NCBI GenBank assembly: GCA_020725925.1
Contig: DYTN01000006.1
Span: forward strand, 20,269 to 84,268
Length of the DNA stretch: 64,000 bases
Reading direction: 5' to 3'
Origin: Methanobacteriota archaeon
Lineage (GTDB): Archaea > Thermoplasmatota > Thermoplasmata > UBA10834
Shown: positions 14,526 through 37,166 of the stretch, one piece after another
Layout: every line of letters begins with the position of its first letter
Numbering within the stretch: position 1 is the stretch's first letter
Position numbers and translations under genes: made by a program
Notes under the pieces: model-generated
Databases searched by the model: none
Seen by the model: the letters and a program-made list of their open reading frames with translations, nothing else
What the model was told of the DNA's origin: nothing

Positions 14526-14611
14526 ATGTGACAATGCGGCCCTTGGAGTTGTGTCTAGTTTCACTGCACGTACTGGGAAAGACTAACCAGTCAAAGTCAG
14601 TCCTCTTAGTG

Positions 14612-21620: not shown

Positions 21621-21647
21621 GACGGCCGAAAGCAAGTTGAACGATAG

Positions 21648-21664
21648 AAACCCTTTCCCTTTTC
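21648..21664 (+). terminator. Putative pyrimidine-rich terminator
   Basis: aaaccctttcccttttc about 28 bp after the stop. Confidence 0.4.
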
Positions 21665-22069
21665 TAGTAATCCTGCTCGCTTGTCCTTTGTTTCCTTCAT
21701 CTTCTAGGCGAAGATCTGTCCCCTGAGATGCTTAGCTGGCAACGTGACCTCGAGATCAATCATGAGCCGAGAGCTAGACATGAACCCAATACTAGCCATG
21801 TCTTCAGGCATGTAGGTTCTTGCGCCCAACCGCACTCACTTCAACCAAATGACGGAGTCCTCTGTCCGTAGGTAGACGGAGTCTCCCCCCTCATTTTGCA
21901 TCGGCAAGTAAAGCATCCATTTTTGGTTGCCGGAAGACTCCGGGCCAATATCCGGGCCCAGACTCAACATCCGCCTCTTGCACGAAGTGCTTGTCTTCGA
22001 ACCCAAGAAGATTCATCTGTTAGTCTGCGATTCGGAGATCTAGCGCATGGTCAACTTCGGTGGCGTCAA

Positions 22070-22564
22070 ATGATTGATTTGCTGAAACTGGCGACTAAGC
22101 TGGAAGAGATGCGGTGCCGCCCTGCTGTCCTTTCTGGTCAGTGGGAGGGCCAGGGCTTCGACATAGTCGCAGGCAGCAACAAGAACGCGGTTCTGGTCAA
22201 GGTACTGAAGACGTTCGATGATCGCTCAGCAAAGGAAATCGAAAAGGTCTACACAGACCTCTGTGCGAAGTCCTCAGGCTGGCTCCTTGGAAGGAGATTT
22301 GAATTGGTCATCTTGGCCGAGACCGTCAATACTGACATTCAGCCGTACTTTGACTGGAGCGAGAGGCTCAGCAAGATAGCAGCTAGAGCGCGACTCTATG
22401 ACATGAAGAGTGGCGGTGGAAGGGTCTCCGTAGTCGACCTCGAGAACAAGGAAATCCTACCGCGAATGAAATGGTTTCCTGAGGACCGCAGCAACATCGG
22501 TCAGCAATTCCAGGAGCTTCATCTGAATTCAAGATGGGGTAGAGCTATAGTGGAGTGCTGGTAG
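22070..22564 (+). CDS. Hypothetical protein, possibly PD-(D/E)XK-like fold
   Basis: ATG 22070 within the 21896..22564 ORF. 'GFDIVAGSNKNAVLVKV' resembles the nuclease-fold core. Confidence 0.45.
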   Translation: MIDLLKLATKLEEMRCRPAVLSGQWEGQGFDIVAGSNKNAVLVKVLKTFDDRSAKEIEKVYTDLCAKSSGWLLGRRFELVILAETVNTDIQPYFDWSERLSKIAARARLYDMKSGGGRVSVVDLENKEILPRMKWFPEDRSNIGQQFQELHLNSRWGRAIVECW

Positions 22565-22631
22565 AAACCCGAAACGATTGCATCTCGCAACATCCCATGT
22601 GGCGAGCCTTCATCGGGTAGTCCGCCAAGAT

Positions 22632-22922
22632 TCACTCTCCATCCTGACGGTGCACGCCGTTCTTCTTGTGGAGCTTCTTCTCAGCTAGAGTCTCAAGCGT
22701 AGCCTTGATCGGAGACACTATGCCCTTCGCTTCATCAAGTTCCTGAAGCCTGATGGCTAGAAACGCCCCCAGGATGACGTCCCGGCTCTGATGCACGCAC
22801 TCACTCAGAATCACATCCCAATCAAGACTCCGTTCCGCGAGCAGAGCCATATCGTCAAGGTCTCCCGCTCTCTCGGTTACGCTCTTGAAGAGGAACGTGT
22901 CTTCCGGGGAGACGAGGTTGAT
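22632..22922 (-). pseudogene. C-terminal remnant of a DUF6036-like nucleotidyltransferase
   Basis: 'LVSPEDTFLFKSVTERAGDLDDMALLAERSLDW..IL.EC...LAIRLQEL.E..G.VSPIK' aligns to the C-terminal half of 4432..5091. The N-terminal catalytic half is absent. Confidence 0.75.
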
Positions 22923-22956
22923 CCTGGGTCTCCCAACCCCAGCGGTCTCGGTATTC

Positions 22957-24315
22957 TCAAACCGAAAGAAGGAGCCACCACAGGGGAAACATACCAATCG
23001 CCACACCCCCGACCTCCATGCTCCCCTGCTTGTCCTTCGTGACCATAAAGGCCTTGTCGCAGTCGTGGACCTCGCAGAACCTGACGAGGCCCTTTGCGTC
23101 CGACTTGTAGATGCTGCTCTGGTACTTCACCTCGATAGGGACCGGACGCGCTCTCGACGGGAGGACGATGTCCACCTCGTTCCCCTGAGAATCCCTCCAG
23201 AAATAGACCGGTGAAGTCCTGGACAGGTGGTTGTACACCGAGGTCTCCGCAAGTCTGCCTATCTCCTGAGTCCCGGTGGATTCGTCTAGGCCGAGGAGTG
23301 AGGTGATGAGTCCGTTGTCAGTCAGATATGCCCTCTTCGACGACCGTGCCTGCTTCACCATGCTCTTCGTGAAGTTGTAGCAGGTCGACATGAGCATCGC
23401 ACGTTCCAGGATGGACAGGTACTTCGAGGCCGTCTGCGCCTTCATGCCGATGTCGGGCGCGATGTTGGAGATCTCGAACCTCTGTGAGCTCATAGAGGCC
23501 AGTATCTTGAGGAGGTGCATCATACTAGCCGGGTTGGCGACGTTCTCCGTCTCAGGAAGATCATGGTACACGACGCGCTCCAAGACCGACTGCCGGATGT
23601 ACCTGTGCACTTTCGAGATTGGGCGCATGCCCACAGTCTCTGGATAACCCCCTCTTATCAGATACTCGTTTAGCGCATCGGAGACCTGCTCCTTGATGAG
23701 CATGAATGATGAAGGAATACCGGATCTCGACCAGATCAGGGGCAAGCGTGGTGCGTCAACGCCTCTGAACCTGAGGTACTCGCGGAAGGATAGCGTCGGG
23801 ACAGTGATGTCGAATGCCCTGCCTGCCAGGCTCTCGCCCATGCCCTTCTTCACACCGAGCGACGAGGAACCCGATGCGAAGATCTTCGCGTTCGGCTGGG
23901 CCTCATAGATGCGCTTGAGTAATGTGGGCCAGTCACGGACGAACTGGACCTCATCGAGGAATAGGAAGGCTCTGGCTTGTTTCGACGGTTTGGCTGGCAA
24001 CACATTGGTGAGGAAGTAGGAAACGACATCGTCGAGCACCGTATGTTCTCTGGAAAGCACCTCATCGAAGGAGAAGTAGAGGATGTTCCTGCGATTGGTA
24101 CCCTTGTCGAGTCGCTCCTGCATCGTCAGGATCATCGCGGTAGTCTTCCCCGATCTCCTTGGACCCGTGATCAGAAGAATCTGACGGTCCGCTAGGTATT
24201 TCGCAATCTCCTCTGTTGCATCTCTCGAATGGATCTTGTCCACGTGTTCGAGGAGACTCTCACCCCTCCATTGAGGGTTTGAGGCCTTCATCTGTCTGAT
24301 GATTTCTTCATTCAC
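22957..24315 (-). CDS. AAA+ ATPase with DUF4143 domain (COG1373)
   Basis: GPRRSGKTT, FLDEVQ, SGSSS, SLAGR, C-terminal 'EVDIVL...PIEVKY'; TATA attataaa about 25 bp upstream. Confidence 0.85.
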   Translation of the reverse strand: MNEEIIRQMKASNPQWRGESLLEHVDKIHSRDATEEIAKYLADRQILLITGPRRSGKTTAMILTMQERLDKGTNRRNILYFSFDEVLSREHTVLDDVVSYFLTNVLPAKPSKQARAFLFLDEVQFVRDWPTLLKRIYEAQPNAKIFASGSSSLGVKKGMGESLAGRAFDITVPTLSFREYLRFRGVDAPRLPLIWSRSGIPSSFMLIKEQVSDALNEYLIRGGYPETVGMRPISKVHRYIRQSVLERVVYHDLPETENVANPASMMHLLKILASMSSQRFEISNIAPDIGMKAQTASKYLSILERAMLMSTCYNFTKSMVKQARSSKRAYLTDNGLITSLLGLDESTGTQEIGRLAETSVYNHLSRTSPVYFWRDSQGNEVDIVLPSRARPVPIEVKYQSSIYKSDAKGLVRFCEVHDCDKAFMVTKDKQGSMEVGGVAIGMFPLWWLLLSV

Positions 24316-24557
24316 GCCCAGTCAATGTAATTTTGAGTTTATAATGATTTCCAGTAAGCCTAAAATTCGTGTGCGTGCTGCCCTTGGGGCCCCCCGGAGT
24401 CATTCTTTCCGACCCCGCCGCTCGTTCCGTTGTGCTTCGGTGTAAGGAGTTTGTGCGATAGTTGATAATTGATATTTGAATGACTTATCACAATTTGCAC
24501 AAATCATTGCGACGGTGACATGAAGAAGCGTTGGTCCTTGCTTCTCGCCGGCGAGTA

Positions 24558-24692
24558 TAGCTCCCTGCATTAATTGCCAGTAGATTCTGTGCCAATAACT
24601 GGGCGTCAATTTGTCCCTAACATTCGTGAATTCTTTAGGTGGGGGGTTTAATTGCCAGCAGATTCTCGGCAGATATCCGGGTCCTCGCACAT
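24558..24692 (+). repeat. RepB family: copies R1 (24558..24587) and R2 (24636..24692)
   Basis: taattgccagtagattct and taattgccagcagattct are 78 bp apart. R2 continues as gcagatatccgggtcctcgcacat. Confidence 0.65.
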
Positions 24693-24780
24693 TCTGCTCG
24701 AATAACCAAACTCAATTCCAGCGCAGACAGGTGAACCGCACGTCCTGAACGCCCATATGGTAGTCTCAGCAGTCCCCGTT

Positions 24781-25863
24781 TCAATGAGCGTGCCTGTGGT
24801 GGATATCGGGCCAATGAGGGTGATCGTGGGCTTCAGTCGGATGAGTATGCTCGTGGACATGAGGTTCCCTGACCGGACCTGGATGACAGTGGTCGTGGGA
24901 GAAGTCCCCATGAGCGTGTAGGTGCACGTGCGTCAACTCCTCGTGCTGATGTACGTGCGAGTGCCTCTCGTAAAGCATTGCCACAACACCACCCACCATC
25001 AGGACGGCCGCAGGCGCCACGACCCATCCGAGCGACTCGTCCAAGAGCGCCACGGAAACCGCTGCTCCCATGAATGGGCCCAAGCTGAAGAACGCTCCAG
25101 TCCTGGAAGCTCCAAGGCCTTGAAGTGCCAGTACAAAGAGGACCAAGCTGGCTCCGTAGCTCAGGGAACCCAGAACCAGAGCCCAGATGATATCGCTGCT
25201 CATCCTCACGTCCCATCCCAGGGCAAGGGCAAGTGCTATCGATGTGCAGCCCGCAACAAGCCCCTTGATCTGCGCAATCTGGATTGGGTCCTTTCCGCAG
25301 ATGTTCCTTGTGAAGTTGTTGTCCAGTCCCCAGCCTATTGCGGCTACGACAAGAAGCAGAGACCCAGTCACAGCAAACACATCCTCCTCGGGATTCCAGC
25401 TCAGGAGGACCCCTGCTGCAGTCATGCAAAGGATTGCCAAGACAATCCTCCGACCCAGACGCTCCTTGAAGAGCATCGTCGCGATTATCGCGGTTGCGAT
25501 ACCTTCAAGGTTGAGTAGAAGTGAAGCTGAGAAACCGGAGATCATTGTCAGGCCGGTCATGAGGCAGATTGGGGCCACGATTCCACCTGCGACTGTTGCC
25601 CCAACCAACCATGGTGCGTCATTTCGCCCCAAACGGCCCTTCAGGATTTCGCGTTGATCCGAAGTGGTTCGACGCAGGATGTCGTAGAGAGATAGCCCGG
25701 CCATGGCTCCAAAGTACAGAAGCCCGGCCAATGCGACAGGCGGAAGGTCTCCCAACAGCATCTTGGCGAACGGGGTGCCCATGCCGAACAGTACTGCGGA
25801 CGCAGCAGCGAACACTAACGGCAGTCTGTTGGCGCCTGCGGAATTCTGCAGTTGGATTCTCAC
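24781..25863 (-). CDS. EamA/DMT family transporter with His-rich C-terminal tail
   Basis: About 10 TM segments, followed by 'HSHVHQHEELTHVHLHAH...HDHPHWPDIHHRHAH'. Confidence 0.85.
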   Translation of the reverse strand: MRIQLQNSAGANRLPLVFAAASAVLFGMGTPFAKMLLGDLPPVALAGLLYFGAMAGLSLYDILRRTTSDQREILKGRLGRNDAPWLVGATVAGGIVAPICLMTGLTMISGFSASLLLNLEGIATAIIATMLFKERLGRRIVLAILCMTAAGVLLSWNPEEDVFAVTGSLLLVVAAIGWGLDNNFTRNICGKDPIQIAQIKGLVAGCTSIALALALGWDVRMSSDIIWALVLGSLSYGASLVLFVLALQGLGASRTGAFFSLGPFMGAAVSVALLDESLGWVVAPAAVLMVGGVVAMLYERHSHVHQHEELTHVHLHAHGDFSHDHCHPGPVREPHVHEHTHPTEAHDHPHWPDIHHRHAH

Positions 25864-25929
25864 CTCGGATTTGAAATCGGCTATATCGTCACGCGCTATT
25901 TAGATTCTCCAGCCAACTCAAGGGCAGAC

Positions 25930-26562
25930 ATGGAGAAACTTCATATTCGAGCATCACATAGTGAAGGAACTGGAATGGAAAGGCTGGTCCGTCTGCGGAA
26001 GAGCCTTCGCGGATCGAGCGTGGGCCCTTCTCTCAGGCGGTTCTTCGTCAACACACTATTCGACTCTACATTCATGCTTCTGGGAGTGATCATCGGCTCT
26101 GCGTTCTCGGACAATCCAGACATCGAGGTCGTGGTGGGTACGATGATCACTACCAGCCTCGCACTAGGGATATCGACGGGCGTCAGCGTTTATGAAGCCG
26201 AGAACCTGGAGAGAGGCATACGCATTTCTCAGATTGAGAAAGCGATGATAAGGAACCTCGACGAGACAGTCATCGCGGAGTCGGCCAGAAAAGCGGCCCT
26301 CGTGGTTTCCCTCGCGAACTTCGCGACGCCGCTCGTTTCGTGTGCTGTCACTATTCTGCCCTTCGTGCTGGCACTTCAGGGTGTGCTACAGCTCAGGACC
26401 GCGGCGTGGATTGCGATCGGGTTCGCACTCGCCATACTATTCACTGCGGGAGTAATCCTCGGACGTCTTGGGAACAAGAACCCGTGGCTCAAGGGATTGA
26501 GGATGCTGGGCTTCGGTGTCCTGGCCTTCGTCATCGGATATCTGATCGAAGTGCTCATCTGA
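25930..26562 (+). CDS. VIT1/CCC1 family transporter (archaeal TIGR00267-like)
   Basis: 'RRFFVNTLFD..FMLLGVIIG', 'ALGISTGVSVYEAE..E', 'LGRL..KNPW..GLRM'. The ORF track extends to TTG 25852. Confidence 0.8.
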   Translation: MEKLHIRASHSEGTGMERLVRLRKSLRGSSVGPSLRRFFVNTLFDSTFMLLGVIIGSAFSDNPDIEVVVGTMITTSLALGISTGVSVYEAENLERGIRISQIEKAMIRNLDETVIAESARKAALVVSLANFATPLVSCAVTILPFVLALQGVLQLRTAAWIAIGFALAILFTAGVILGRLGNKNPWLKGLRMLGFGVLAFVIGYLIEVLI

Positions 26563-26919
26563 GCTCCAGCCGACCATCTCATTAGCCGCTGCAGGGGACT
26601 CCTATTCCCTGCCCTCCGAGACAGTGGCCCCAGGGTGACCGCATATCCTCCGCCAATCTCCAGAACATCTCCCCTGGCCTTCTTGAGATCGGCTGACAGG
26701 TCAAGGCTCATGGAGACCATATGGTTGGCGCCTTTGCCAGAGGTCGTAGTGTTGCTCCTGACATGCGGAAGGAAAGGCAGCCTCGTTTCTTGCCGGTGAG
26801 AAAAGCGATGTCGGCACCCAGTCGTTTCCTGCCTGCAAGCATAGCATCAAGCTTTGATTGCCGGTGGATTCCGGGCCAATATTCCCAGGTCTTCTGTCCC
26901 CCATTTCCTAGCAGGATCA

Positions 26920-26970
26920 TAGGTGGGAGCATTGACTGCCAGTAGATTCCAGACACACATCCGGGTTCTC
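26920..26970 (+). repeat. RepB family copy R3
   Basis: 39/51 identical to 24636..24686. Confidence 0.65.
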
Positions 26971-26975
26971 TCGCC

Positions 26976-27779
26976 TCAGTGGGCCCCGCTACAAGTCAAA
27001 GCCGCTGCGATTGTGGACGCTATGACCTCGACCCATCTGATGGTTGCCACATCTGGCAGCTTCATTGTCCTGGTCCCGGAGATCTCTATCCAGCCGACGA
27101 GCTCATTGCCAGGACCGTAGATTCCAACATCGATGTAGTCTCCCTCCAGACTATCTGTGGGGTCTGTGCGCTTCATCGTCAGAAGCACCGGGCGATTGAA
27201 GGCATCCCTCTCCACTCCATCCGCAGGAAGGTTATCCTCAGCCAGGTATATTCTTGTGTACCTGCTGATCGTGACACCGTGATATTCCACGTCTTCGAAG
27301 AACTGCTCTCTCTTGTAGGCTATCTTCTTGTGTGCTTCTACAGCGTCGGGCCGAAAGCCAACCATCGCCTTGTACCTGTACAGCCCGTCCTTCGGGTCCC
27401 TGAGGCCGATCGCCACGTTGTCTATTCCGAACTGCCGCCAGATGAAGTTGACTGCTTCGTTGAGCATCTTGTCGATGTCCATTTGCGGATCCTGGAAGTG
27501 GGAGAGGAGAGCCTGAACACCTTCAAGGGTCTTCTGAGAGTGATCTCTCACGCCGTGAGAGTATTCGAACTTGATCTTGTCGGGTATCGTCCTATGGTCG
27601 ACCGTCGGTCGTACTGCGGGCTTCCTAGATATGCCCCGCTCCCTCTCAGCGGCTCCAACCCGCCGTGTGGAGTCTCTTTCTGGGGAGGCATTTCGGCGCA
27701 ATTGGTGGAGTGATTTCCCGCATAAGCAGCAAAGGCTTGCCTGTTCAGGGTTTTCGGTTCCACAACTGGGGCATCTCAC
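26976..27779 (-). CDS. Zinc-ribbon plus GAF-like domain protein
   Basis: N-terminal CPSCGTENPEQASLCCLCG; GAF-like 'NEAVNFIWRQFGIDNVAIGLRD...YRY.AMVG'; RBS ggagg. Confidence 0.65.
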   Translation of the reverse strand: MRCPSCGTENPEQASLCCLCGKSLHQLRRNASPERDSTRRVGAAERERGISRKPAVRPTVDHRTIPDKIKFEYSHGVRDHSQKTLEGVQALLSHFQDPQMDIDKMLNEAVNFIWRQFGIDNVAIGLRDPKDGLYRYKAMVGFRPDAVEAHKKIAYKREQFFEDVEYHGVTISRYTRIYLAEDNLPADGVERDAFNRPVLLTMKRTDPTDSLEGDYIDVGIYGPGNELVGWIEISGTRTMKLPDVATIRWVEVIASTIAAALTCSGAH

Positions 27780-28015
27780 AGGGGGTCCTCCAGCATGCGC
27801 AATCGCGCTTTCTCGTCCTAGTTAAGTCTCCTAGACAGCTATAAACATCTTTCCCCTTGAGCCCCTATGGTCATGCAGCGATTGGCGGGGGGCTCTTTGC
27901 TGGCAGTGAATTCGGGAATTGCCTTTCAGGCATCGAGTGCAATCTACCGGCGGATCGGCGACATTGTCCGAGCCATCGAACATCCTCCGTTGGCCAAATC
28001 GATGTTCAAACCATG

Positions 28016-28219
28016 CTAGGGAACATGTGCGTGTTTGAGTTTCTCGCTTGCCGGTTCTCCGCCTACTCCCCAGTCCTCCTTCGGCACCTCATGGATGACA
28101 ACTTCGACTGCTTCCGCGGGCACGCCTATGTCAACGAAGACTCTAGTCATGCCTGCTATCACCCTTTTCTTGGCTTCGTTTGAAAATCCCTTCCAAACAT
28201 ACACCTGCACAATTGGCAT
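28016..28219 (-). CDS. 4-oxalocrotonate tautomerase family protein
   Basis: M-P-I-V start (catalytic Pro1) and 'VEVVIHEVPKEDWGVGG'. Confidence 0.9.
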   Translation of the reverse strand: MPIVQVYVWKGFSNEAKKRVIAGMTRVFVDIGVPAEAVEVVIHEVPKEDWGVGGEPASEKLKHAHVP

Positions 28220-28297
28220 GCGATGTCTCACCACTTAGGTACGTGTCAGGCTTGGTATTTAATGGGTCGATTTGATGTCGGAACCAACGGGGCTCTC

Positions 28298-28337
28298 CAT
28301 TCTTCCCGGGAAAAGGCCATACGGAAGAGAGGGACAT
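28298..28337 (+). repeat. RepB family block-4 copy (degenerate)
   Basis: cattcttcccgggaaaaggccatacggaagagagggacat. Confidence 0.5.
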
Positions 28338-28365
28338 CTGTATCTTGTAGTGCGAAGTGACTGCC

Positions 28366-29340
28366 ATGGAACCGAAAACCAAAATTGCCCTAGCTGCGGG
28401 TGCATTTATCATCACTGTGATCGTGATTGTCGCGGCAATACAGATTGGCAGCCGTTCCAAGAGAGAGAATGTGCCTCATGAAGGGGCATGGGGCATCTAC
28501 TCACTGGTCATCGACTCTGAGAGGGTCAGCCTGATATACAGTTCCGAGAACATGCTCCGAGACCTGTCTCTCAACGGAGCCGGAGACAAACTAGCGTTCA
28601 GCGAGAGAATTGATGGCACAAGCGATTCCTCTGAAGAGATATGCTGCGTCAATGTGGATGGCACTGGGTTCAATAGGCTCACAAACAACAGCGTCCTTGA
28701 TACGTATCCTGCGTGGTCATCGGATGAATCAATTCTCTACTTCCTGTCATGGCGGAACACGTCCCTAGACATATACAAAATGAGTCCCAGTGGGAGCGGC
28801 CAGGTCATGTTCTACGATTCCGGTTTCCATGACGCGGATGTCAATAGCGTGGGTGACAAGCTCGTCTTCACCAGACAGAGCCAGATCTGGAGCATCCACG
28901 ATGACGCATCCGGAGAGGCCAAGATCACGGACCCTCCAAGAGCAGGCGAGTGGGGAAACGCGAACCTTCCTTTTGGGGACTATGACCCTAGGTTGAGCCC
29001 AGATGGAAGCAGGATAGTGTTCGAGAGATTGGTCGATGATGCCAGTGTCCACGGCAACTACGACCTCTATATCGTAGACGCGGACGGCACTGATGAGCGC
29101 GCCCTCACCGCAAACGGGTACTCCCAGGGTCTTGCAGGCTGGTCGCATTCAGGTGACAGAATAGCCTACATAGTTGCCGCGATCAATGACACTGGAGTCT
29201 ATCACATCTACATGATGGACTCCGACGGGACGGACAACAGGGACGCGACTCCGGGTTATTTCCCAGACGGTTTCCTGTGTCAATCCGTTGTGTTCTCGCA
29301 AGATGACTCGAGATTGTTCTTCATAGGTCAGTGGTGGTGA
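28366..29340 (+). CDS. Membrane-anchored TolB-like (PD40) beta-propeller protein
   Basis: N-terminal TM; repeats 'YPAWSSD', 'PRLSPDGSRIVFE', 'DLYIVDADGTDERALT'. Confidence 0.8.
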   Translation: MEPKTKIALAAGAFIITVIVIVAAIQIGSRSKRENVPHEGAWGIYSLVIDSERVSLIYSSENMLRDLSLNGAGDKLAFSERIDGTSDSSEEICCVNVDGTGFNRLTNNSVLDTYPAWSSDESILYFLSWRNTSLDIYKMSPSGSGQVMFYDSGFHDADVNSVGDKLVFTRQSQIWSIHDDASGEAKITDPPRAGEWGNANLPFGDYDPRLSPDGSRIVFERLVDDASVHGNYDLYIVDADGTDERALTANGYSQGLAGWSHSGDRIAYIVAAINDTGVYHIYMMDSDGTDNRDATPGYFPDGFLCQSVVFSQDDSRLFFIGQWW

Positions 29341-29348
29341 AGCAGGGG

Positions 29349-29437
29349 CATTCCTCTCGGAAAAGACCATAGGAATGGAAAGGCACAAGATGTTCAAACC
29401 ATAGCCCGAGAAAAGACTATAGGAGAGGAAGGGCGAT
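29349..29437 (+). repeat. RepB family: two tandem copies (29349..29384 and 29390..29437)
   Basis: cggaaaagaccataggaatggaaaggc and atgttcaaacca...cgagaaaagactataggagaggaagggcgat (38/48 identical to 31374..31421). Confidence 0.7.
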
Positions 29438-29492
29438 TCAAGACCCAGGTGTGGTGGTGCTATTGAAGTCGGTTGTCTTGGGATACGCGGCT

Positions 29493-30497
29493 ATGGCGAA
29501 GGGACAGGAACTCAAGCAGTTCGATTACGAGCCGCCGAAACTGAACGGTCATGACGTTCGAGTTGCCATTACCCATTGCGGTCTCTGCTACACTGACATC
29601 CACGCGATCGACGACTACTTCGGCATCACCAACTTCCCGTTTGTGCCCGGCCATGAGATCGTTGGTCAAGTGTCTGAAATTGGCTCTGAAGTCACTGGGC
29701 TAAGGAAGGGCGATCGTGTCGGCATCGGGTGGCAGGGTCGTTCATGCATGGAGTGCGAGTGGTGCTTGAAGGGGGAGGAACAACTATGCAAAGACATCGC
29801 CAAAGCGGCAGCGTGGTCTCCTTACGGCGGCTTCTCGTCCTCGATCACGGTGGACAGCCGTTTTGCGTATTCGTTGCCCGCCTCCATGCCCTCCGAGTTC
29901 GCTGCGGTGCTCCTCTGTGCGGGAATCACTGTCTACTCTCCGCTTAGATCGACGGAAACTGGACACAGGCGAAAGGTCGGCATAGTCGGTGTGGGCGGTC
30001 TGGGCCATCTCGCAATTCAGTTCGCACATGCCCTCGACTGTGAGGTCACGGCCATTTCGTCGTCGCCGGACAAGGAGGAACAAGCCCTGGCTCTTGGCGC
30101 GGACCACTTTGTTATGGCCGAGGACAAAGGTACTCTTCGTAACATGAATCTGAGCCTCGACATGCTTCTATACACCGGCCACAGTGCAATCGACTGGACA
30201 CGGTTGTTGAACACGCTTAGGAACAATGGCAAGCTCGTCATGGTTGGGTTCTCCACCGTCCCTGTGACATTCGAGCCGCTAGAGTTGGTGGTTCATCAGA
30301 TGTCGATCACAGGATCTCTGCTTGGCAGCCGGATGGTGATGCGTGAGATGCTCGCGTTCGCGCAAGAGCGAGGCATCAAGCCACAGATCGAGTTCATGCC
30401 AATGTCGCAAGTGAACGAGGCGATTCGTAGGGTGAAGGAAGGGAGGGCGCGTTACCGAATCGTTCTCGTAAATGATTCAGCGCGCCTTCGAACCTGA
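29493..30497 (+). CDS. Zn-dependent NAD(P) alcohol dehydrogenase (cinnamyl-ADH/YahK-like)
   Basis: CGLCYTD, GHE, structural-Zn C..C..C...C, LLCAG.TVY, G.GGLG. The ORF track starts at 29451. Confidence 0.9.
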   Translation: MAKGQELKQFDYEPPKLNGHDVRVAITHCGLCYTDIHAIDDYFGITNFPFVPGHEIVGQVSEIGSEVTGLRKGDRVGIGWQGRSCMECEWCLKGEEQLCKDIAKAAAWSPYGGFSSSITVDSRFAYSLPASMPSEFAAVLLCAGITVYSPLRSTETGHRRKVGIVGVGGLGHLAIQFAHALDCEVTAISSSPDKEEQALALGADHFVMAEDKGTLRNMNLSLDMLLYTGHSAIDWTRLLNTLRNNGKLVMVGFSTVPVTFEPLELVVHQMSITGSLLGSRMVMREMLAFAQERGIKPQIEFMPMSQVNEAIRRVKEGRARYRIVLVNDSARLRT

Positions 30498-30506
30498 GCG
30501 GACGAA

Positions 30507-30573
30507 GGGTCCTCACGCATTAGGAATTGTATGTATCTCAGTTCGGAAAAGACCGTAGGGATGGAAAGGCGAT
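30507..30573 (+). repeat. RepB family copy between convergent genes
   Basis: gggtcctcacgcat ... cggaaaagaccgtagggatggaaaggcgat. Confidence 0.7.
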
Positions 30574-30619
30574 CTGAAAGAAAGACTGCTAAAGGGTTTT
30601 TGGAGCTCGGATTCCTGGT

Positions 30620-31243
30620 TCATGCCGGCCAAACCATGGGCTCAAATGTGTCTGAAATGTCGACCCAAAATACTCCACCATAGATGTTCTGCCAATGTGG
30701 GCTGAAATCGACGATAACGCAGAACGTCGACGAAAGGCTGGACGGGTTCCCAATTGTATCAGCGTCAACATACCAGGCGAAGGTCGCACCCGTGATAGAC
30801 ATCTCGGGCGGATCTAGGTCGATTGGAGCGGGGTCATATCGGCTAAGGAGCGGTACGAACCCGTTGCCATACCATGCTACGGCGACCATATAGTCGCGGC
30901 TTCCGTCCAGATTGGTGTCAAGGAAGTGCACCCACCCCATTCCATTCGTCCCAGGCGTCAAAGCTACCTCGGTCAACAAGTCTTCGCAATACATTGTCAT
31001 GGTCAGCACAAAGTCACCCTTCTGCTTCGAGACCGAAACTTCCTTGATGTCCAGGTAATCCGCCTGCCCAATCGGGGAGTTATCTGGCCAAGGCACGTTG
31101 AAATCGTTATACAAGTATAGCTTGCTCAAGTCGTATCGGTCATCTTTCACCGTGACTGTGTTGGTCGTCTTCCCAGCCAGGACGGGCTGGGCCAACATGA
31201 GTACTGCCACGACTATACTAAATGCTACTGCTACTGCTCTCAT
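30620..31243 (-). CDS. Hypothetical secreted protein
   Basis: Signal peptide MRAVAVAFSIVVAVLMLAQPVLA; RBS ggaggtga; pyrimidine-rich tract after the stop. Confidence 0.65.
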   Translation of the reverse strand: MRAVAVAFSIVVAVLMLAQPVLAGKTTNTVTVKDDRYDLSKLYLYNDFNVPWPDNSPIGQADYLDIKEVSVSKQKGDFVLTMTMYCEDLLTEVALTPGTNGMGWVHFLDTNLDGSRDYMVAVAWYGNGFVPLLSRYDPAPIDLDPPEMSITGATFAWYVDADTIGNPSSLSSTFCVIVDFSPHWQNIYGGVFWVDISDTFEPMVWPA

Positions 31244-31338
31244 CTACATTTCACCTCCCCCTCGAACCACGGTCAAGGCTGTGTCCCGAATCGACTGACG
31301 TTGTATTAACTGCTTGTCTACGGAAGGTGGAAAGGGAA

Positions 31339-31421
31339 GGGCCCTCGCGCATCTTGATTCAAATCAAGGATTCATGTTCAAACCAAGACGCGAGAAAAGA
31401 CCATAGGGATGGAGAGGCGAT
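31339..31421 (+). repeat. RepB family copy (83 bp; weaker similarity from 31303)
   Basis: Same length and conserved ends as 32239..32321; internal stem CTCGCG-CA-TCTTG / CAAGA-CGCGAG. Confidence 0.7.
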
Positions 31422-31442
31422 ATGTGGGAAGGAGGTATTGGG

Positions 31443-31814
31443 ATGAAAGGAAAAGGCCAAATCAAGCGGATACCGCACCTTACCCTCGGCGTGTCCGATC
31501 TGAAGAGGTCCGTGTCCTTCTACCAGGACGTGCTTGACCTTAAGAAAGTCGGGGAATGGCCGGGCTATGCAGTCTTCGACATTGCTGGAGTGGAGATCGG
31601 TCTGGAGCCGAGATCGAAACCAGAAATCTGCTTGCTCGTTGACGATGTAGACAGGGCTTACGAAAGTCTCAAAGCAAAAGGAGCAAAGTTCGCTTCCAAG
31701 CCAAAGGATCAGGCTTGGGGCGGTCGAACAGCTGCCTTTGCCGACCCCGATGGAAACAAGTTCGTCATCGAATCGTTCCGATGCAAGGTCTGCGGAAGAA
31801 GCTGCAAGAGTTAA
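31443..31814 (+). CDS. VOC / glyoxalase-bleomycin resistance family protein
   Basis: 'HLTLGVSDLKRSVSFYQDVL', 'WGGRTAAFADPDGNKFVI'; RBS ggaggt. Confidence 0.9.
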   Translation: MKGKGQIKRIPHLTLGVSDLKRSVSFYQDVLDLKKVGEWPGYAVFDIAGVEIGLEPRSKPEICLLVDDVDRAYESLKAKGAKFASKPKDQAWGGRTAAFADPDGNKFVIESFRCKVCGRSCKS

Positions 31815-32204
31815 CGCGAGCTTCTGGAGCAGCACTTGCAGAAACACAAGTGACATCGGATGTCAATCGGATCATCGCTGATTTCGCCGGCAATCTCAGC
31901 GAGGTGTGGGCCGGGGCATCTATTGAGATCAAGCTCGTGCTAACCTTCGTATCCGCCAGAAAGTTCCATCAGAGACATCCAGAAGAAAGAGCCTGGCTCG
32001 GTGCAGCTATCATCTGACTGGAAAGGAGCTGGACGCTTGTGTCCGCACAAGGCTCTCTGCACTGATTGACTCACACCTAGTTCGCGGGACATACATCCCA
32101 AGGCATTTCAAAAGAGACAATAAGAAAGGGCACTCTGCATTTTCTGCTGGCAGGAGAACGGGGGACGAGACCCCCCCAATTTGCACCAGCAAGTAAAGCA
32201 TCCC

Positions 32205-32321
32205 GCTTCAACTACTGGTAGATTCCGTGCAGAAATCTGGGTCCTCGCGCATGTTGACTCCGTGTCGCGAGTTGATGCTCAGACTATGACCTAGAAAAGA
32301 CCATGAGCAAGGAAGGGCGAT
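32205..32321 (+). repeat. RepB family, longest copy (all four blocks)
   Basis: gcttcaactactggtagattc...gcagaaatctgggtcctcgcgcat...atgctcagacta...gaaaagaccatgagcaaggaagggcgat; 32215..32252 matches 24655..24692 at 29/38. Confidence 0.7.
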
Positions 32322-32349
32322 GACGTGTTCGGAGAATTGGTGAGAGTTC

Positions 32350-33132
32350 GTGCCCAGGCTGCCTCCTGTCGTTCTTGGTGATTCAGGCCTGAGAGTGTCC
32401 AAACTGGGCTTCGGCACTGTCGAATTTGGCGTCAAATCAAACAACATCACCCCAGAAGAGGGAAGTAGCATACTAATTGGCTCACACAGGCTGGGTGTCA
32501 ACTACTGGGACACGTCCGATGACTACGGCAGTCACCCTCATGTTGCAGGGGCACTAAGACGTCTGCCGAGGGAGGAAGTCGTGTTGTCCACGAAGACGGG
32601 GGCAAGAACCTCAAGAGAAGCCACAAGGAGTCTGAAGGCCTCCCTGAAAGAACTTGGTACCGACTATGTGGACATCTTCTTTCTACACTACGTCAAATCA
32701 GACTGGATTGATGGCTGTCGTCGCGTCCTGAAGGAGCTGGGCAGCGCGAAGAAGGCTGGGACCGTGAAGGCGCTTGGTTTATCCACTCATAGTGTTGTGG
32801 TCGCGGAAGAAGCCCACAGAATCAGGGAATTGGATGTACTGATGACCATCTATTGCAGGGGAAGCCAGGCAATGGTCAGAAGATATCCTAGACACATTCC
32901 CCTGGTAGATGGTTCCATCGAAGAGATGCTGCAGGCCATCGAGCTAGCGCATGATGCTGGAAAAGGTGTTGTTGCCATGAAGGTCCTGGGAACTGGGGCA
33001 CCGCCACTTATCAGAGGGTATCGATCGTCCATAAGGTCAGTTGCCCGGATTGCATCCATCGACTCGATGGTAATAGGAATGAGGAACATGGACGAGGTAA
33101 GGAAGAACGTCAGGGCATTCGTATCCCGCTAG
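32350..33132 (+). CDS. Aldo/keto reductase family protein
   Basis: 'SGLRVSKLGFGT', 'GVNYWDTSDDYG', 'LSTK', 'LGTDYVDIFFLH', 'GLSTH'. Confidence 0.9.
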   Translation: MPRLPPVVLGDSGLRVSKLGFGTVEFGVKSNNITPEEGSSILIGSHRLGVNYWDTSDDYGSHPHVAGALRRLPREEVVLSTKTGARTSREATRSLKASLKELGTDYVDIFFLHYVKSDWIDGCRRVLKELGSAKKAGTVKALGLSTHSVVVAEEAHRIRELDVLMTIYCRGSQAMVRRYPRHIPLVDGSIEEMLQAIELAHDAGKGVVAMKVLGTGAPPLIRGYRSSIRSVARIASIDSMVIGMRNMDEVRKNVRAFVSR

Positions 33133-33195
33133 TTCTGACCATCTCAGCACGTTATGATGAGCCATCCGTCCCTGATCGCCTCATGCGGTGAGCAC

Positions 33196-33465
33196 ATGCA
33201 CCCACTGCTTGCGGGAGCCATGGCCATCGGAGTATCCCTGGTCACTATTGGTCTCGGGATGGCGCTCGTCAGTCATTCGGAGATGGAAGGAATGATTCAA
33301 TCCGGGGCGACCGATCTAGACGAGCAGCTCGAATCCTTGAACGACAGGAGCATGGCCGGCGTCTATCTAGCGTCCATTGGCGCGGGCGTGACGGTCTTCG
33401 CCCTCTTGATCGATGAGAATCGAAGGAAAAAGGAGCGGGAAAAGAAAAGAGGTTTCTTGTACTAG
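33196..33465 (+). CDS. Small two-TM hypothetical membrane protein
   Basis: Two hydrophobic helices and a basic C-terminus; the ORF track starts at 33154. Confidence 0.5.
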   Translation: MHPLLAGAMAIGVSLVTIGLGMALVSHSEMEGMIQSGATDLDEQLESLNDRSMAGVYLASIGAGVTVFALLIDENRRKKEREKKRGFLY

Positions 33466-33535
33466 ACTCAAAAAGGGTCGCAGAGTACGCATCCCCGTCT
33501 GATTGCGGGAATTGAGCTGCCCAATGCTGAGCTCC

Positions 33536-34472
33536 TCATCTCTTCTTCTGTGGTCCCTTGAGCCATCCTCCCACACCGAGTTCCTTCACCCTGACTTCGA
33601 TGGGCTCGGGCTCGCAGGTCTTGTACTTGCCAGACTCGTCAAGGTACATGATTCTCGGGTTCAAAGAGAAGTGCCCATGATTTGACGACTTCAGACGAAG
33701 CGTGATGTCCTCGGTCTTCAACGCATCGAGTCTCTTCCCCTTCATGTTGAGATGGTCGTTCTCAATCCTGTATGATCCAGGCTCCGAAAGCAGCTCAAAC
33801 CCCTCAGGCACAGCCCTCTCGATCTTGATGATCTGAGCAGGAGCTCCTCCGGCATTGACCATCTCCACATCGAGTCTCATCTCCTCTCCAACGTTCATCT
33901 CCTTCGGCTTCATGATGAGCGTTGCCTGGATCGAGGCGTGCCGGAATTCCTCCACCCCGTTCGCCGTCTCCTGAGTCGCCGCTGGGACCGCGAAGGCCAT
34001 GGTGCTCGATACTGCGTCCGGCGCGTGGAGGATCTCCATGAGGGAAACCGCCAGAGCTCTGTACTGAATCACCTTCTGCTGTAGTTTCGAGACCTTCTCA
34101 TTCTTCTTGGGATAGCCCGCCTTCACGTACGCCGCTGCAGAAGCATCAAGGACCTTCTCCGTCATTGCGTACAGTCTCGCCTTCTTCTTTGGCTGCCTTG
34201 TCCATCAAGACATATGCATCGAACAACAGCTTGGAGGCGTTTGCGTACTCGGCGTCTTTCTCAAGACCTGCATTGAGGTACGACTTCGCGGCGCTCTCGA
34301 GGTTCCCGGTGGCGAGTCCGTGCAAGGCAGTATCCCCCGATTCCGCAAACTTGGTCAAAAGAGGCTTGATTCCCGCCTCCGAAAAGGCCTTGTGGATGGA
34401 AAAGCACCTGCTTTCTTCCGATAAGTAGGCGGCGCTCCGATAGTGCTTGTTTCCTGCCAGTAGGCATAGCAC
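33536..34472 (-). pseudogene. Frameshifted remnant of a helical-repeat protein with a C-terminal Ig-like domain
   Basis: ORF 34146..34472 (…DAYVLMDKAAKEE) continues in another frame as ARLYAMTEKVLDA… (33536..34165) across an aaagaagaagg tract. There is no credible N-terminus. Confidence 0.5.
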
Positions 34473-34670
34473 CCAGGTTCACCTGCCGGGAGATCCCGGG
34501 CCGTGATCACAGCCCGAGAAAGGCGATGGAAGAAGGCAGAGGAGGAATTGAGTCCCGCTCGTGAAAAAGGCCTGGAGGGATGGAACGGTGGTTTGGACAT
34601 GCGCTGGTCCTGAAGTTCTGTCGCTCATCACGAAGCTAATTGCGGTATTGAGCACAGAGTAGTTGGGAAA

Positions 34671-34699
34671 CGGAAAAGGCAAAGAGGGTGGAAAGCGAT
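34671..34699 (+). repeat. RepB family block-4 copy (degenerate)
   Basis: cggaaaaggcaaagagggtggaaagcgat. Confidence 0.4.
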
Positions 34700-34963
34700 G
34701 CGGCAATCCGTGAGTGGTCTTTCTCCGTATGGAGGAAGGAATGGTGATTCATTCTGCTGTCTCACCATCGATTGAGCTAGGAGCCCGCGTTCTCCTAGCT
34801 TCGTCGACTGCGGAGCAATGCGCGTAGGATGGTCGCAGGACGTCCTGCGAAATTCGCATCTATCTGCGTGCTGCTTCGCACGTTGGCAGAACAAGGAGGA
34901 GTTGATAGGCGGGGTGGCGAGGTGCGCATCGGCGGAGAATCAAGAATAGGTCAAAACACGACA

Positions 34964-37090
34964 ATGATCATCATCATTCTAGTAGTCCTGCTTGTCCTGT
35001 GCCTTCCGAGAAGTTCATTCCCCGCTTCTGCAACACTCGAACGCGAATGGACAGGACCAGTGCCGGTTCCGATGGGTGCGCCGAATGGCCAGGACTACGT
35101 CCGCTGTCCTAGTATCGCGGTCGACGGCAACGGCAATGCGGTTGCTGTCTGGCAGCAAGGCTTGTCAGAACTCAGCACATTGGCAAACCGATTCACGAAG
35201 GGATCCGGCTGGGGTAATCCGGTCGTGCTGGACGATGCCGCGGCGACTTCCTGGCCAGATGTCGCGTGTGACCAGTTCGGCAATGCCATAGCAGTGTGGG
35301 AACACAGAGACAGTCTGGATATCGGCACCCCAACGGTCGTTCAGGCGAGCCGCTACTGGGATGGCTGGGGTTGGGGACCAAGTTCGACCATATCGCAGGG
35401 AAATGGAAATGCGAGCGAGCCACGCATCGCGGTTGATGCCATGGGCAATGCCATCGTCATTTGGAGGTTCTCGATTGGATTCAACAGTAGTATTTGGTCA
35501 AATAGGTACATGGTCGGTGCCGGATGGATGGACCCCCAGAAGGCTTCCACAGGCGGCGGGAACTGGGGAGGACATGAAGTCGCTGTTGACATGACAGGCG
35601 ATGCAATCGCCGTGTGGACCGGGGGCGCAGGCATAATGGCAAACCGATACTCGAACTCCTCATGGGGAATCCCGGTTGTCATCGGAAATGGTATCTATCC
35701 GAAGATAGCAGGCAACGCTGCTGGTGACGCGGTCGCTGCCTGGGCGGGAGTCCTCAACGGGACAGGGGGCCTCATATCATGCCGGTTCTCGCCGGATGTC
35801 GGCTGGGGCGCGGCCGTTGCCATCGGAGAATACGCGCAACTGTTACCATATGAGGAGGGCCCGAGCGTTGCCATGAGCTCGAGTGGAGAGGCGGTCATTG
35901 CCTGGGATCAATGGGTCGGGGAGGGCCCACCCGCTTCCCAGGCAGTGGTGAGTCGCTCATTCGTAGACACAGCCTGGAGCATTCCCGAGCCGGTCGGGAC
36001 ACCTGTTGAGTATTGGCCTTCTTGTCCTGTTGTTGCGATAGACTCGCTTGGCAACGCCATTGTCGTCTGGCCCAATATCAACAACTCCACGCTTTGGGGC
36101 CGCAGCTACACTGTTGGCCAAGGCTGGGGAACTCCAGTTCTGGTTTCGGGCGACCGGAATTGCTCGCTCGCGCCGATAATCGCGATGGATGCAATGGGCA
36201 ATGCCATGGTCCTTTGGCTGGAATCCGAGGGCAACAGCTCGATTATTTGGACATGCAGCTATGCCGGAGTCGAACCCCAACCCGACATGATTGTCATAGA
36301 GCCCGACCTCTCTGACATTTCCCGTGATATCTCCATGCTGAGATGGGCCGTCGTCGCCAACTCTGCCCTCGCCTTCGCATTAGCTTCGGTCCTCATCCTA
36401 GTGCTTCTCAGGCGTCGGAATGGAAGTCGCGGCAGCCCCATAGGACTCCACGGTGACTCACGCTCGAGGGGACCGGACAGTACTTCGGGCCAAGTGATGC
36501 ATCTCCAATTGCCTGCGGACAACAACAGCACTCCCGCAAACGGACTCAACCAGGAAAGGCGTTGGCCTTCGAGGGCCATTTCGGGCCCGCTTCGACTCAC
36601 AGCCAAAGAGAGGATACTGCTCCATCTCCTGCACTTCGCTCGGTATGCGGACTCGCTGGAGGTCCCGCCCGAACTGACGCAGGAACGCATCGCAGAAGCT
36701 GCAGGAATCGAGAGGCGCCATTTCACGCAATACGTTCACCCCCTCGAAGAAGACGAGCTAGTTCGAGAGCGGACGAGCCGCGTGAGAGGTGTGGTCCAGA
36801 AGCGGCGCGTCTATGTCCTCACTGAAGAAGGAGTGCGCAGGACTCTCGGGGTCCGTGACCGGGTCCGGTCAGCGATGGTCCGTGTGCGGGACGCCTCAGC
36901 AGTCCGGGAGGTCACCGTTGCAGAGGCGCTCATCGAAGCGCGCGGGTCGATGTCAGTCCTGGACATCATTCGCGAGTCGATCGAGACGGGAATCGTCGAT
37001 CTAACACGCTCGGCGTCCTCGGGACGGGAAGCTGGTCCAATGACAGTGGGTTCGGAGGAAGGGGTGCTGCAATTAGAGGAAAACAGATGA
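34964..37090 (+). CDS. Membrane protein: extracellular beta-propeller repeats, TM helix, cytoplasmic winged-helix domain
   Basis: Signal-like start MIIIILVVLLVLC; about 8 repeats of 'P.IA.D..GNA..VW'; TM 'WAVVANSALAFALASVLILVLL'; wHTH 'KERILLHL...LTQERIAEAAGIERRHFTQYVHPLEEDELV...RRVYVLTEEG'. Confidence 0.75.
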   Translation: MIIIILVVLLVLCLPRSSFPASATLEREWTGPVPVPMGAPNGQDYVRCPSIAVDGNGNAVAVWQQGLSELSTLANRFTKGSGWGNPVVLDDAAATSWPDVACDQFGNAIAVWEHRDSLDIGTPTVVQASRYWDGWGWGPSSTISQGNGNASEPRIAVDAMGNAIVIWRFSIGFNSSIWSNRYMVGAGWMDPQKASTGGGNWGGHEVAVDMTGDAIAVWTGGAGIMANRYSNSSWGIPVVIGNGIYPKIAGNAAGDAVAAWAGVLNGTGGLISCRFSPDVGWGAAVAIGEYAQLLPYEEGPSVAMSSSGEAVIAWDQWVGEGPPASQAVVSRSFVDTAWSIPEPVGTPVEYWPSCPVVAIDSLGNAIVVWPNINNSTLWGRSYTVGQGWGTPVLVSGDRNCSLAPIIAMDAMGNAMVLWLESEGNSSIIWTCSYAGVEPQPDMIVIEPDLSDISRDISMLRWAVVANSALAFALASVLILVLLRRRNGSRGSPIGLHGDSRSRGPDSTSGQVMHLQLPADNNSTPANGLNQERRWPSRAISGPLRLTAKERILLHLLHFARYADSLEVPPELTQERIAEAAGIERRHFTQYVHPLEEDELVRERTSRVRGVVQKRRVYVLTEEGVRRTLGVRDRVRSAMVRVRDASAVREVTVAEALIEARGSMSVLDIIRESIETGIVDLTRSASSGREAGPMTVGSEEGVLQLEENR

Positions 37091-37166
37091 TAGATGCCCC
37101 CCACTTGTATTGGCTCTGGCGAGCGAATACGTCACCTCGTGTGTGGTTCGAGTGCGAGGTGAGGCA

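Follow-up and report, generated by a model that had tools for sequence, protein, structure and literature searches.

RepB, a modular repeat array in a Thermoplasmata genome with a core derived from the 3′ end of tRNA-Leu(CAA): probable att sites of a cassette-scale island

The 64-kb stretch of Thermoplasmata contig DYTN01000006.1 analysed here (the window) contains a modular repeat family, RepB, with at least 12 co-oriented copies on the plus strand within 21886–38757, and these copies are most probably attachment (att) sites belonging to integrative elements with the tRNA-Leu(CAA) 3′ end as their target. RepB was recovered in three ways, by direct reading, repeat search and an nhmmer profile, as well as by pattern searches, with every window copy lying on the plus strand. 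The profile was seeded with the full window copy (32165–32330) and two full copies from other genomes, and its matches in the window start at 21886, 24546, 24647, 26814, 26899, 29354, 29390, 30507, 31339, 32166, 34450 and 38725 (E 1e-16 to 1e-2). A 28-mer from block 4 gives two window matches at ≤3 mismatches, compared with none in 100 shuffles. The four-block family described in the initial annotation is therefore real, however its extent, given as 24558–34699, was too narrow, with a further module (block 0) and the copies at 21886, 26814, 34450 and 38725 having been missed. Eight of the ten copies listed there are solid, the other two, at 28298 (E 0.07) and 34671 (no profile match), being weak degenerate look-alikes of block 4.

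A full copy comprises a left arm (blocks 0 and 1), a centre (block 2) and a right arm (blocks 3 and 4). Block 0, the module upstream of block 1, has the consensus CATTTyCTaCCGGCAAGTAAAGCATCC and lies at 21886, 24533, 26817, 32171 and 34449, with the left arm carrying a TACCGGYAAG / TGCCAGTAG-type motif twice. The full copy at 32166..32322 (+), which belongs to the profile seed, runs from blocks 0 and 1 through the core ATCTGGGTCCTCGCGCAT (32234–32251) to blocks 3 and 4. Window copies have one to five mismatches in the 18-nt core, and several are partial or decayed. The two copies first reported to share an identical span are present, but are composites with block 1 duplicated 78 nt apart (24569/24647 and 26853/26931 by repeat search), an architecture also found in another genome (L024; L-numbers denote loci from related Thermoplasmata genomes).

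The array opens with a copy at 21886..21968 (+; nhmmer E 1e-16, repeat search and anchored alignment), in which blocks 0 and 1 and the left part of the core (ATATCCGGGCCC) are followed by unrelated sequence (AGACTCAAC). The first module (21969..24532, mixed strands; gene assignments are from Pfam unless stated) holds an open reading frame (ORF) of no identified family (21896–22564, +), a DUF6036-like nucleotidyltransferase (NTase) fragment (22632–23006, −) and an AAA_14/DUF4143 ATPase (22957–24315, −). Both of the latter have paralogues elsewhere in the window, with the fragment at 22632–23006 (−) being a 70%-identical partial paralogue of a DUF6036 nucleotidyltransferase gene at 4432–5091 (−), and a second paralogue of the ATPase lying at 13178–14395. 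The second copy (24533..24697, +) is composite, its order being block 0, block 1a, the 78-nt duplication, block 1b and the core ATCCGGGTCCTCGCACAT (24674–24691; one mismatch to the core), with profile matches at 24546–24604 (E 7e-8) and 24647–24697 (E 1e-7). Module 2 (24781..26562) comprises an EamA transporter (24781–25863, −) and a VIT1-family protein (25852–26562, +). The third copy (26814..26976, +) is likewise composite, with a decayed core (ATCCGGGTTCTCTCGCCT) and profile matches at 26814–26882 (E 7e-10) and 26899–26974 (E 2.5e-4), and is followed by module 3 (26976..28234, −), which encodes a 267-aa protein with a weak DUF7577 N-terminus (26976–27779, −) and a 4-oxalocrotonate tautomerase (28016–28234, −). 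A weak degenerate block-4 remnant (28300..28340, +; nhmmer E 0.07 only, 70% in the repeat search) has a PD40 (TolB-like) gene 3′ of it (28357–29340).

Right-arm pieces without a core, block 4 and then block 3 plus block 4, occupy 29354..29438 (+), with nhmmer matches at 29354–29384 (E 0.01) and 29390–29438 (E 3e-9) and agreement from the repeat search. The module that follows (29410..30505, +) contains a Zn-dependent alcohol dehydrogenase (ADH) gene at 29451–30497. The next copy (30507..30573, +; nhmmer E 5e-5) retains the right part of the core (GGGTCCTCACGCAT) and block 4, and lies, as initially described, between convergent genes, namely that for ADH (+) and that for a 207-aa secreted protein of no identified family (module 30620..31243, −). 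At 31339..31422 (+; nhmmer E 1e-13) a copy with core (GGGCCCTCGCGCAT), block 3 and block 4, just downstream of a decayed block 1 (about 31290–31338), precedes a glyoxalase/VOC-family protein (31422..31814, +). The full copy described above is followed by a module at 32350..34472 (mixed strands) with an aldo-keto reductase (AKR; 32350–33132, +) and, from the ORF list, a 103-aa ORF (33154–33465, +) and two adjoining ORFs (33536–34165 and 34146–34472, −). These adjoining ORFs (209 and 108 aa, with a 20-nt overlap) may represent one frameshifted gene. The copy at 34450..34515 (+; nhmmer E 1e-5 and repeat search) has blocks 0 and 1 and has lost its core, with weak block-4-like pieces after it at 34566–34595 and about 34673–34699. 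The last module (34829..38645, +) encodes a 753-aa repeat protein (34829–37090), without relatives in the genome contigs searched, and a Kelch/Big_7 protein (37110–38645). The terminal copy (38680..38757, +; nhmmer 38725–38763, E 1e-3, and sequence) combines the left arm with a core (GTCCGGGCCCTCGCACAT, 38740–38757) better preserved than any other in the window, lacks blocks 3–4, and is the putative outer attR of a composite island filling the left ~39 kb of the window.

The window modules are 0.8–4 kb in size and contain one to three genes in either orientation, without an integrase of their own. Their earlier gene calls are supported by Pfam for EamA, VIT1, the tautomerase (4-OT), PD40 (TolB-like), Zn-ADH, glyoxalase/VOC and aldo-keto reductase, but not for the protein called GAF, which gives only the weak DUF7577 match.

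The placement of the repeats could suggest an expression signal or structured RNA, whether a promoter or 5′ leader, a riboswitch-like leader, or a small RNA from block 0. Block 4 lies 10–60 nt upstream of the PD40, ADH, VOC, AKR and 753-aa genes in the window and contains GGGGAGGAAAGG and a Shine–Dalgarno-like GGAGG, and block 0 has a TATA-like box (TAAAG/TATAG) about 25 nt before the tRNA-like part. Gene orientation, however, does not follow that of the repeats, with the next gene co-oriented for 23 and convergent for 23 of 54 block-4 copies, and co-oriented for 16 compared with convergent for 26 of the core copies without block 4. (The orientation test is uninformative when any ORF of ≥60 aa is accepted, random positions then scoring 59%.) Rfam 15 gives no match at gathering score in the window, repeats included, and the sole match at E up to 10 over 21500–39000 is a chance one outside the repeats. 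RNAalifold on 27 copies yields 4 pairs at −4 kcal/mol and no covariation (covariation term −0.22 kcal/mol), and a full copy folds no better than its shuffles (z = −1.7). Given the lack of an Rfam match or conserved structure and the random orientation relative to genes, the structured non-coding RNA (ncRNA) leader proposed at first is disfavoured, and we regard an expression or RNA function for RepB as very unlikely. Ideas from reading that the repeats could be a C/D-box small RNA, a split-tRNA half or a riboswitch likewise gain no support from the Rfam or RNAalifold results.

The origin of the core is evident from related genomes. A degenerate block-4 pattern retrieved nine loci in Thermoplasmata metagenome-assembled genomes (MAGs), and the block-2 pattern ATCYGGGYCCTCGCRCAT (an 18-mer) retrieved ~37 further Thermoplasmata loci along with ~80 bacterial chance matches, the latter providing a built-in negative control. 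Of the 46 Thermoplasmata loci scanned, 41 match the RepB profile, as against none of the ~80 bacterial loci fetched with the same 18-mer. Nine of the profile “copies” are genuine tRNA-Leu(CAA) genes, which ARAGORN confirms whilst adding a tenth, and the block-2 match coincides with the 3′ end of the called tRNA in all ten. Core-anchored alignment reveals that ATCCGGGCCCTCGCACAT plus TTTAAT is common to the tRNA loci and ~45 repeat copies, with similarity decaying on both sides, and that this stretch spans the T-loop, the 3′ acceptor strand, the discriminator and the T-rich trailer. The core of ~24 nt is identical to the last bases of the tRNA-Leu(CAA) gene of related Thermoplasmata MAGs plus the trailer, and the RepB core thus derives from the tRNA-Leu(CAA) 3′ end. 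To its left, the arm occurs in at least three or four subtypes, each conserved between species and all with TTTAAyCACCGGTAGATTCCGGGTCAAT; to its right, tRNA loci and repeats mostly run into block 3 (TTTAAT-N10-14-ATTWATGTTCAAAC), and some into block 4. The core was not found in the viral contigs searched, and a metagenome scan for a tRNA-Leu variant with the GGGTCC core of the window returned one unrelated match only.

In the related genomes, arrays start at the tRNA itself in at least three loci. An intact tRNA is followed by two or three same-strand repeat copies, 1.3–2.4 kb apart, in L040, L057 and L144, and the tRNA-plus-array arrangement also occurs on the JAHIRF contig with L095 and L034. 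Copies within any one locus, up to seven in number, are all on one strand. Synteny is lost at the tRNA 3′ end. Gene order 5′ of the tRNA (an M24 peptidase and neighbours) is shared by a dozen genomes, whereas beyond the tRNA relatedness ends abruptly, with L040 and L095 aligning at 93% identity over 3.2 kb up to 6 nt past the tRNA end and L040 and L144 at 92.6% identity up to the same point, both pairs being unrelated beyond. The pairs L065/L089 and L084/L121 lose synteny at the same tRNA-end point.

Modules with the same cargo (AAA_14 ATPase, Fic, ADH and secreted protein) recur beside other neighbours in other genomes, with a repeat or the tRNA as the boundary each time. The window ATPase segment (22966–24364) has 73–76% DNA identity to modules in four other loci; those of L057 and L084 stand immediately 3′ of the tRNA, and those of L048 and L086 have a repeat copy on either side. 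L084, where the tRNA precedes, and L048, where a repeat arm precedes, share about 94% identity over the ~100 nt right of the core, which matches the prediction of attB × attP recombination. In L016, L049 and L061, copies flank a Fic module (88–95% identity). The ADH module (29410–30505) has 88.7% DNA identity to L105 4119–5213 (MAG PFL9); homology stops at either flanking repeat, and the two modules have different neighbours. Homologues of the 207-aa secreted protein have 59–77% identity, and DNA homology to L128, L131 and L132, again with different neighbours, covers window positions 30543/30570–31270, one limit being block 4 and the other lying ~70 nt away from the next core. The order of genes between repeats is not maintained in relatives, in agreement with the discrete modules envisaged in the initial annotation. 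The cargo, comprising transporters, peptidases, NosD/PKD surface proteins, Fic, nucleotidyltransferase, TATA-binding-protein (TBP) paralogues and oxidoreductases, is typical flexible-genome material. TBP paralogues recur near arrays (L086, L014, L039, L053 and L100) with 83–94% DNA identity between genomes, and are unusual cargo for a flexible island.

A candidate enzyme is found beside the tRNA. A profile of the window's integrase family (see below) detected, 3′ of tRNA-Leu(CAA) in L029 and L095, a distant relative that Pfam and NCBIfam identify as a Phage_integrase plus SAM-domain protein, a XerA-like tyrosine recombinase. The gene lies ~590 nt downstream of, and co-oriented with, tRNA-Leu(CAA) in L141, L142 and L144, with relatives at the same ~590-nt distance from tRNA-Leu(TAA) (L143) and tRNA-Ser(TGA) (L146). 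It is missing in the 93%-identical L040 and truncated in L144, where three RepB copies come after it, and L141 and L144 are 92% identical as far as the middle of the integrase gene and unrelated beyond. Identification with archaeal XerA, the chromosome dimer resolvase, was rejected, as the tRNA-adjacent integrases score 162–170 bits against an NCBIfam XerA_Arch cut-off of 220, and the gene is absent or truncated at this place in 92–93%-identical relatives. An SSV-type arrangement, with att inside the integrase gene, was rejected on reading, the frames inspected containing stop codons. The flank between tRNA and integrase carries TACCGGTAAC, TGCCAGTAA or TACCAGTAA, a TACCGGTAA-type motif of which the left arm of RepB (blocks 0 and 1) has two instances, making it a plausible candidate for an arm-type binding site. 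The enzyme acting on RepB would be the XerA-like integrase that stands beside tRNA-Leu(CAA) in relatives, and we infer this, as we do the strand-crossover site and any present activity of the window array.

The best reading of the window array is of attP-like junctions left by serial site-specific integration, forming a tRNA-anchored, cassette-scale island without its own integrase in the window. A full copy would represent an attP-type junction of left arm (blocks 0 and 1), ~24-nt core with trailer, and right arm (blocks 3 and 4), and a tyrosine integrase would join the site on the element either to the tRNA gene or to a copy already in place. Through successive integrations modules would accumulate head to tail, so that each internal boundary would consist of the left arm of the left module, the core, and the right arm of the right module, with all copies taking the orientation of the tRNA. 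As the modules lack their own integrase, their movement would have to depend on an enzyme supplied in trans, or on homologous recombination involving the 100–150-bp repeats.

Several observations weigh against att sites of this kind. There is no XerA-like integrase in the 64-kb window, nor any integrase in most array-bearing 8-kb blocks. Neither a complete tRNA-Leu(CAA) nor its 5′ half is present in the window, so the array is either detached from its presumed anchor or the anchor lies on the part of the 103.8-kb contig (~40 kb) outside the window; together with the decayed and partial copies, this makes it probable that the window array is old and, as it now stands, an orphan without its anchor. 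The ATPase module carries different left-arm subtypes in L057, L086 and L048, and some modules are inverted relative to the repeats (an HTH gene in L103 and an HTH–secreted pair in L100), and not all of the shuffling can be accounted for by simple recombination at the core alone. In the T-loop the repeats read TCAATAT and the tRNA TTCAAAT, and the crossover point can therefore not be placed. Block 4 also occurs alone (L009), after tRNA-Ala (L007) and after a tRNA-like 3′ fragment (L001), outside the tRNA-Leu(CAA) context, and may therefore have a role of its own; the block-4-only array of L009 is not explained by the att model. Finally, short-read MAGs can be mis-joined across such repeats. 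The same arrays are present in long-read and closed assemblies (OY970070.1, CP070736.1 and MFD bins).

These block-4 loci are distinctive in themselves. In MAG PFL9 a tRNA-Ala(CGC) gene precedes block 4, here with a block-3-like spacer (L007 1286–1420), and in L001 (about 7128–7200) block 4 follows a tRNA-like 3′ fragment ending in CCA, which indicates that elements aimed at other tRNAs share the right arm. L009, also from MAG PFL9, has seven co-oriented block-4-only copies (TTGAGCCTCGGAAAAGMCCATAGGGGAGGAAAGGCGAT) at 640–4700, ~0.3–1.1 kb apart and without the tRNA-derived core.

The modularity of RepB, its often partial copies, the solitary spread of block 4 (L009) and the association of the same cargo with different left-arm subtypes could also indicate a non-autonomous repeat resembling a miniature inverted-repeat transposable element (MITE) or the BOX/BIME repeats, which would have captured a tRNA 3′ end and inserted in a fixed orientation among genes that are ordinary neighbours. 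Such an element should leave marks that are lacking here, with no terminal inverted repeats or target-site duplications at element ends, and no filled/empty pair between collinear genes among about 50 loci; instead, homology between genomes ends at the copies. The arrays, moreover, begin at the tRNA gene itself, and the identical right flank after a true tRNA (L084) and after a repeat (L048) is the product to be expected of site-specific recombination and not of insertion. We consider a MITE-like origin, one of the options in the initial annotation, to be quite unlikely.

Alternatively, the repeats may be marks of old integrations, with the modules now shuffled by homologous recombination between 100–150-bp direct repeats, through looping-out and re-insertion or unequal crossing-over, and no dedicated integrase. 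A nearby integrase is usually missing from the arrays, the length and similarity of the repeats suffice for RadA-type recombination, and mixed arm subtypes and occasional inversions (L100 and L103) fit varying exchange points. However, the strong conservation of arms and core over about 27 species-level assemblies suggests selection for a protein-recognised site, and the integrase family at the tRNA end of some arrays shares its arm motif with the repeats. As a full account of the arrays this explanation is unlikely, but homologous recombination between repeats may well contribute to shuffling, given that the same cargo has different arm subtypes and a few modules are inverted.

Short single-gene units between co-oriented 60–160-bp repeats, together with the report of integrons in Archaea (PMC9668308), raise the question of whether RepB forms a classical integron cassette array, a cluster of attC sites lacking integron-integrases (CALIN). 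The site lacks the R″/L″–L′/R′ palindrome of attC, an end-to-end inverted repeat, imperfect or otherwise, and the RYYYAAC/GTTRRRY cores, with the candidate GTTCAAA violating GTTRRRY on reading. As single-stranded DNA it folds at −21.7 kcal/mol compared with −16.4±3.2 for shuffles (z = −1.7), its centre is the 3′ end of tRNA-Leu(CAA), and gene orientation varies. Against the integron-integrase model TIGR02249, with its cut-off of 265, all four of the integrases tested reach 20–64 bits. An integron array in the strict sense is accordingly extremely improbable. Among the three options first put forward, the cassette-type array comes closest to the att sites favoured here, whilst its attC-like structured sites do not hold up and the MITE family and the ncRNA leader are disfavoured.

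A bolder and more tentative possibility is that Thermoplasmata use a tRNA gene as the anchor of a working, integron-like system of gene capture, in which the XerA-like integrase, its gene lying close downstream of tRNA-Leu(CAA), would take up, stack and reshuffle single-gene cassettes that lack an integrase. Sister integrases would act at tRNA-Leu(TAA) and tRNA-Ser(TGA), each cassette would bear a ~150-bp attP-like site with TACCGGYAAG arm motifs and a tRNA-derived core, and the window array would be an orphan cassette array comparable to a CALIN.

Known repeat and island systems share some of these features. BOX repeats of pneumococcus and BIME/REP repeats of enterobacteria are spread over the whole genome, fold into strong hairpins and have no tRNA origin. 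RepB resembles BOX and BIME in its fixed order of sub-blocks, in the presence or absence of blocks from copy to copy and in its intergenic position, but is clustered, co-oriented and unstructured, and bounds variable gene content. The cis-mobilisable elements (CIMEs) of Streptococcus usually number one or two per site and derive from integrative and conjugative elements (ICEs). Like RepB modules, CIMEs are integrase-less, att-flanked segments from tandem site-specific accretion that are mobilisable in trans, whereas RepB forms long arrays of tiny modules in an archaeon. Chromosomal superintegrons contain near-identical attC (VCR) repeats. Integrons and CALINs, including the archaeal ones (PMC9668308; the term “Thermoplasmat” is not present in the main text of that paper), also comprise arrays of single-gene, integrase-less units between co-oriented conserved repeats, with units recurring in other orders elsewhere and the recombinase at the head of the array (as in L144) or absent. 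In contrast to integrons, RepB has no IntI and no folded attC, its site being of the double-strand type with a tRNA-derived core; genes are oriented at random, and a tRNA gene takes the place of attI as the anchor. The RepB array is functionally close to a chromosomal integron array, yet every test of integron membership gave a negative result.

The closest mechanism is that of the tDNA islands (Islander-type, with tyrosine integrases), which enter a tRNA gene at its 3′ end and have their own ends marked by the displaced 3′ fragment (PMC4383910). Direct-repeat tRNA fragments, a synteny break exactly at the tRNA end and tandem islands at one tRNA are common to both (PMC4383910). In contrast to tDNA islands, RepB units hold one to three genes (about 0.8–4 kb) mostly without an integrase, a dozen repeat copies lie within 17 kb, the arms of ~60 nt on each side are conserved across many species, and the window array is not attached to an intact tRNA. 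Tycheposons of Prochlorococcus are cargo elements at a few tRNA genes, with new arrivals pushing older ones deeper, and their islands contain many partial tRNAs and degraded integrases, the integrases clustering by target tRNA (10.1101/2020.12.28.424599). Serial integration leaving partial tRNAs is shared with RepB, but RepB belongs to a different domain of life, its integrase lineage is XerA-like, no replication module was seen, and the modules are much smaller, each keeping an almost complete attP-like site. Whilst the mechanism is that already known from tDNA islands (PMC4383910), the integron-like single-gene form is unusual, as are the cassette scale (one to three genes, no integrase), the ~150-bp attP-like site at every boundary and the conservation of RepB arms across about 27 species-level Thermoplasmata assemblies.

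If this reading is correct, widespread uncultured Thermoplasmata of soil, peat and groundwater build part of their flexible genome from very small exchangeable modules joined at tRNA-derived sites, which match integron cassettes in scale and logic and arise through the ordinary chemistry of tRNA-targeting integrases. The core and arms provide a signature for locating such islands and their boundaries in archaeal MAGs, the repeats would explain the fragmentation of these regions in short-read assemblies, and the candidate integrase/att pair is a possible archaeal genetic tool. For annotation, the tRNA fragments should not be taken for genes, nor the repeats for promoters or ncRNAs.

The left part of the window looks like a composite island of mobile elements. 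G+C is 52–55% over 1–34 kb, 57–60% over 34–40 kb and 60–65% further right, with the terminal RepB copy (38680..38757) situated where it rises, and the lower-G+C stretch also holds two tRNA-Leu(CAG)-type integrases and Fic, toxin–antitoxin (TA)-like and ABC-transporter cargo. The two tyrosine integrases (Pfam Phage_integrase), Int1 (6235–7215, +) and Int2 (15947–16972, +), are paralogous and 78% identical, and a 3′-end fragment of tRNA-Leu(CAG) (GGTTCAAATCAGGTCCCTGCACA; 16978–17000, −) lies directly after Int2, as judged by comparison with the intact tRNA-Leu(CAG) of L133 and L137. Int2 homologues stand tail-to-tail against tRNA-Leu(CAG) in L133 and L138/L139; in L137 this tRNA is about 5 kb downstream of the Int2-family gene, and in L140 its 3′ fragment comes right after the integrase. 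Int1 and Int2 were rejected as the RepB enzyme, as their family sits at tRNA-Leu(CAG) and no RepB copy occurs near their homologues in the loci examined. The statement in the initial annotation that the array is without a local recombinase is thus inexact for the window, which has two, but holds for the RepB site, which is not the target of their family. Int1 and Int2 therefore belong to a second element family, which has the tRNA-Leu(CAG) fragment as its att and is probably the system behind the repeat termed RepA in that annotation.

A protein search places the Int1/Int2 family in 126 clusters at E ≤1e-10, many of them 75–90% identical to the query. Among the first ~80 clusters listed, most are 72–92% identical to the query and most are on short contigs, and this abundance and the short contigs fit a very successful, assembly-breaking mobile element of environmental Thermoplasmatota. 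The integrase pair and a small paralogous ORF upstream of each (3700–4260, weak HTH_5; 14957–15466, no Pfam match) lie within ~3.7–17 kb. A motif, TGCATGTAGGGGAATKCRAAYC or CACATGCGGTGGGATTTGAAC, recurs at about 8310–8340, 12130–12155, 13135–13160 and 14503–14528 and resembles the reverse complement of the tRNA-Leu(CAG) 3′ end (TGTGCAGGGAGCCGGATTTGAA), so that these occurrences may be att copies, now decayed, from the integrase-bearing elements. An 81%-identical segment at 6104–6151 and 14406–14453, located upstream of the integrase modules, contains an inverted repeat (GGTGTCCA-N-GTTGACACC) beside a TATA-like box, and may be an operator or promoter of these elements.

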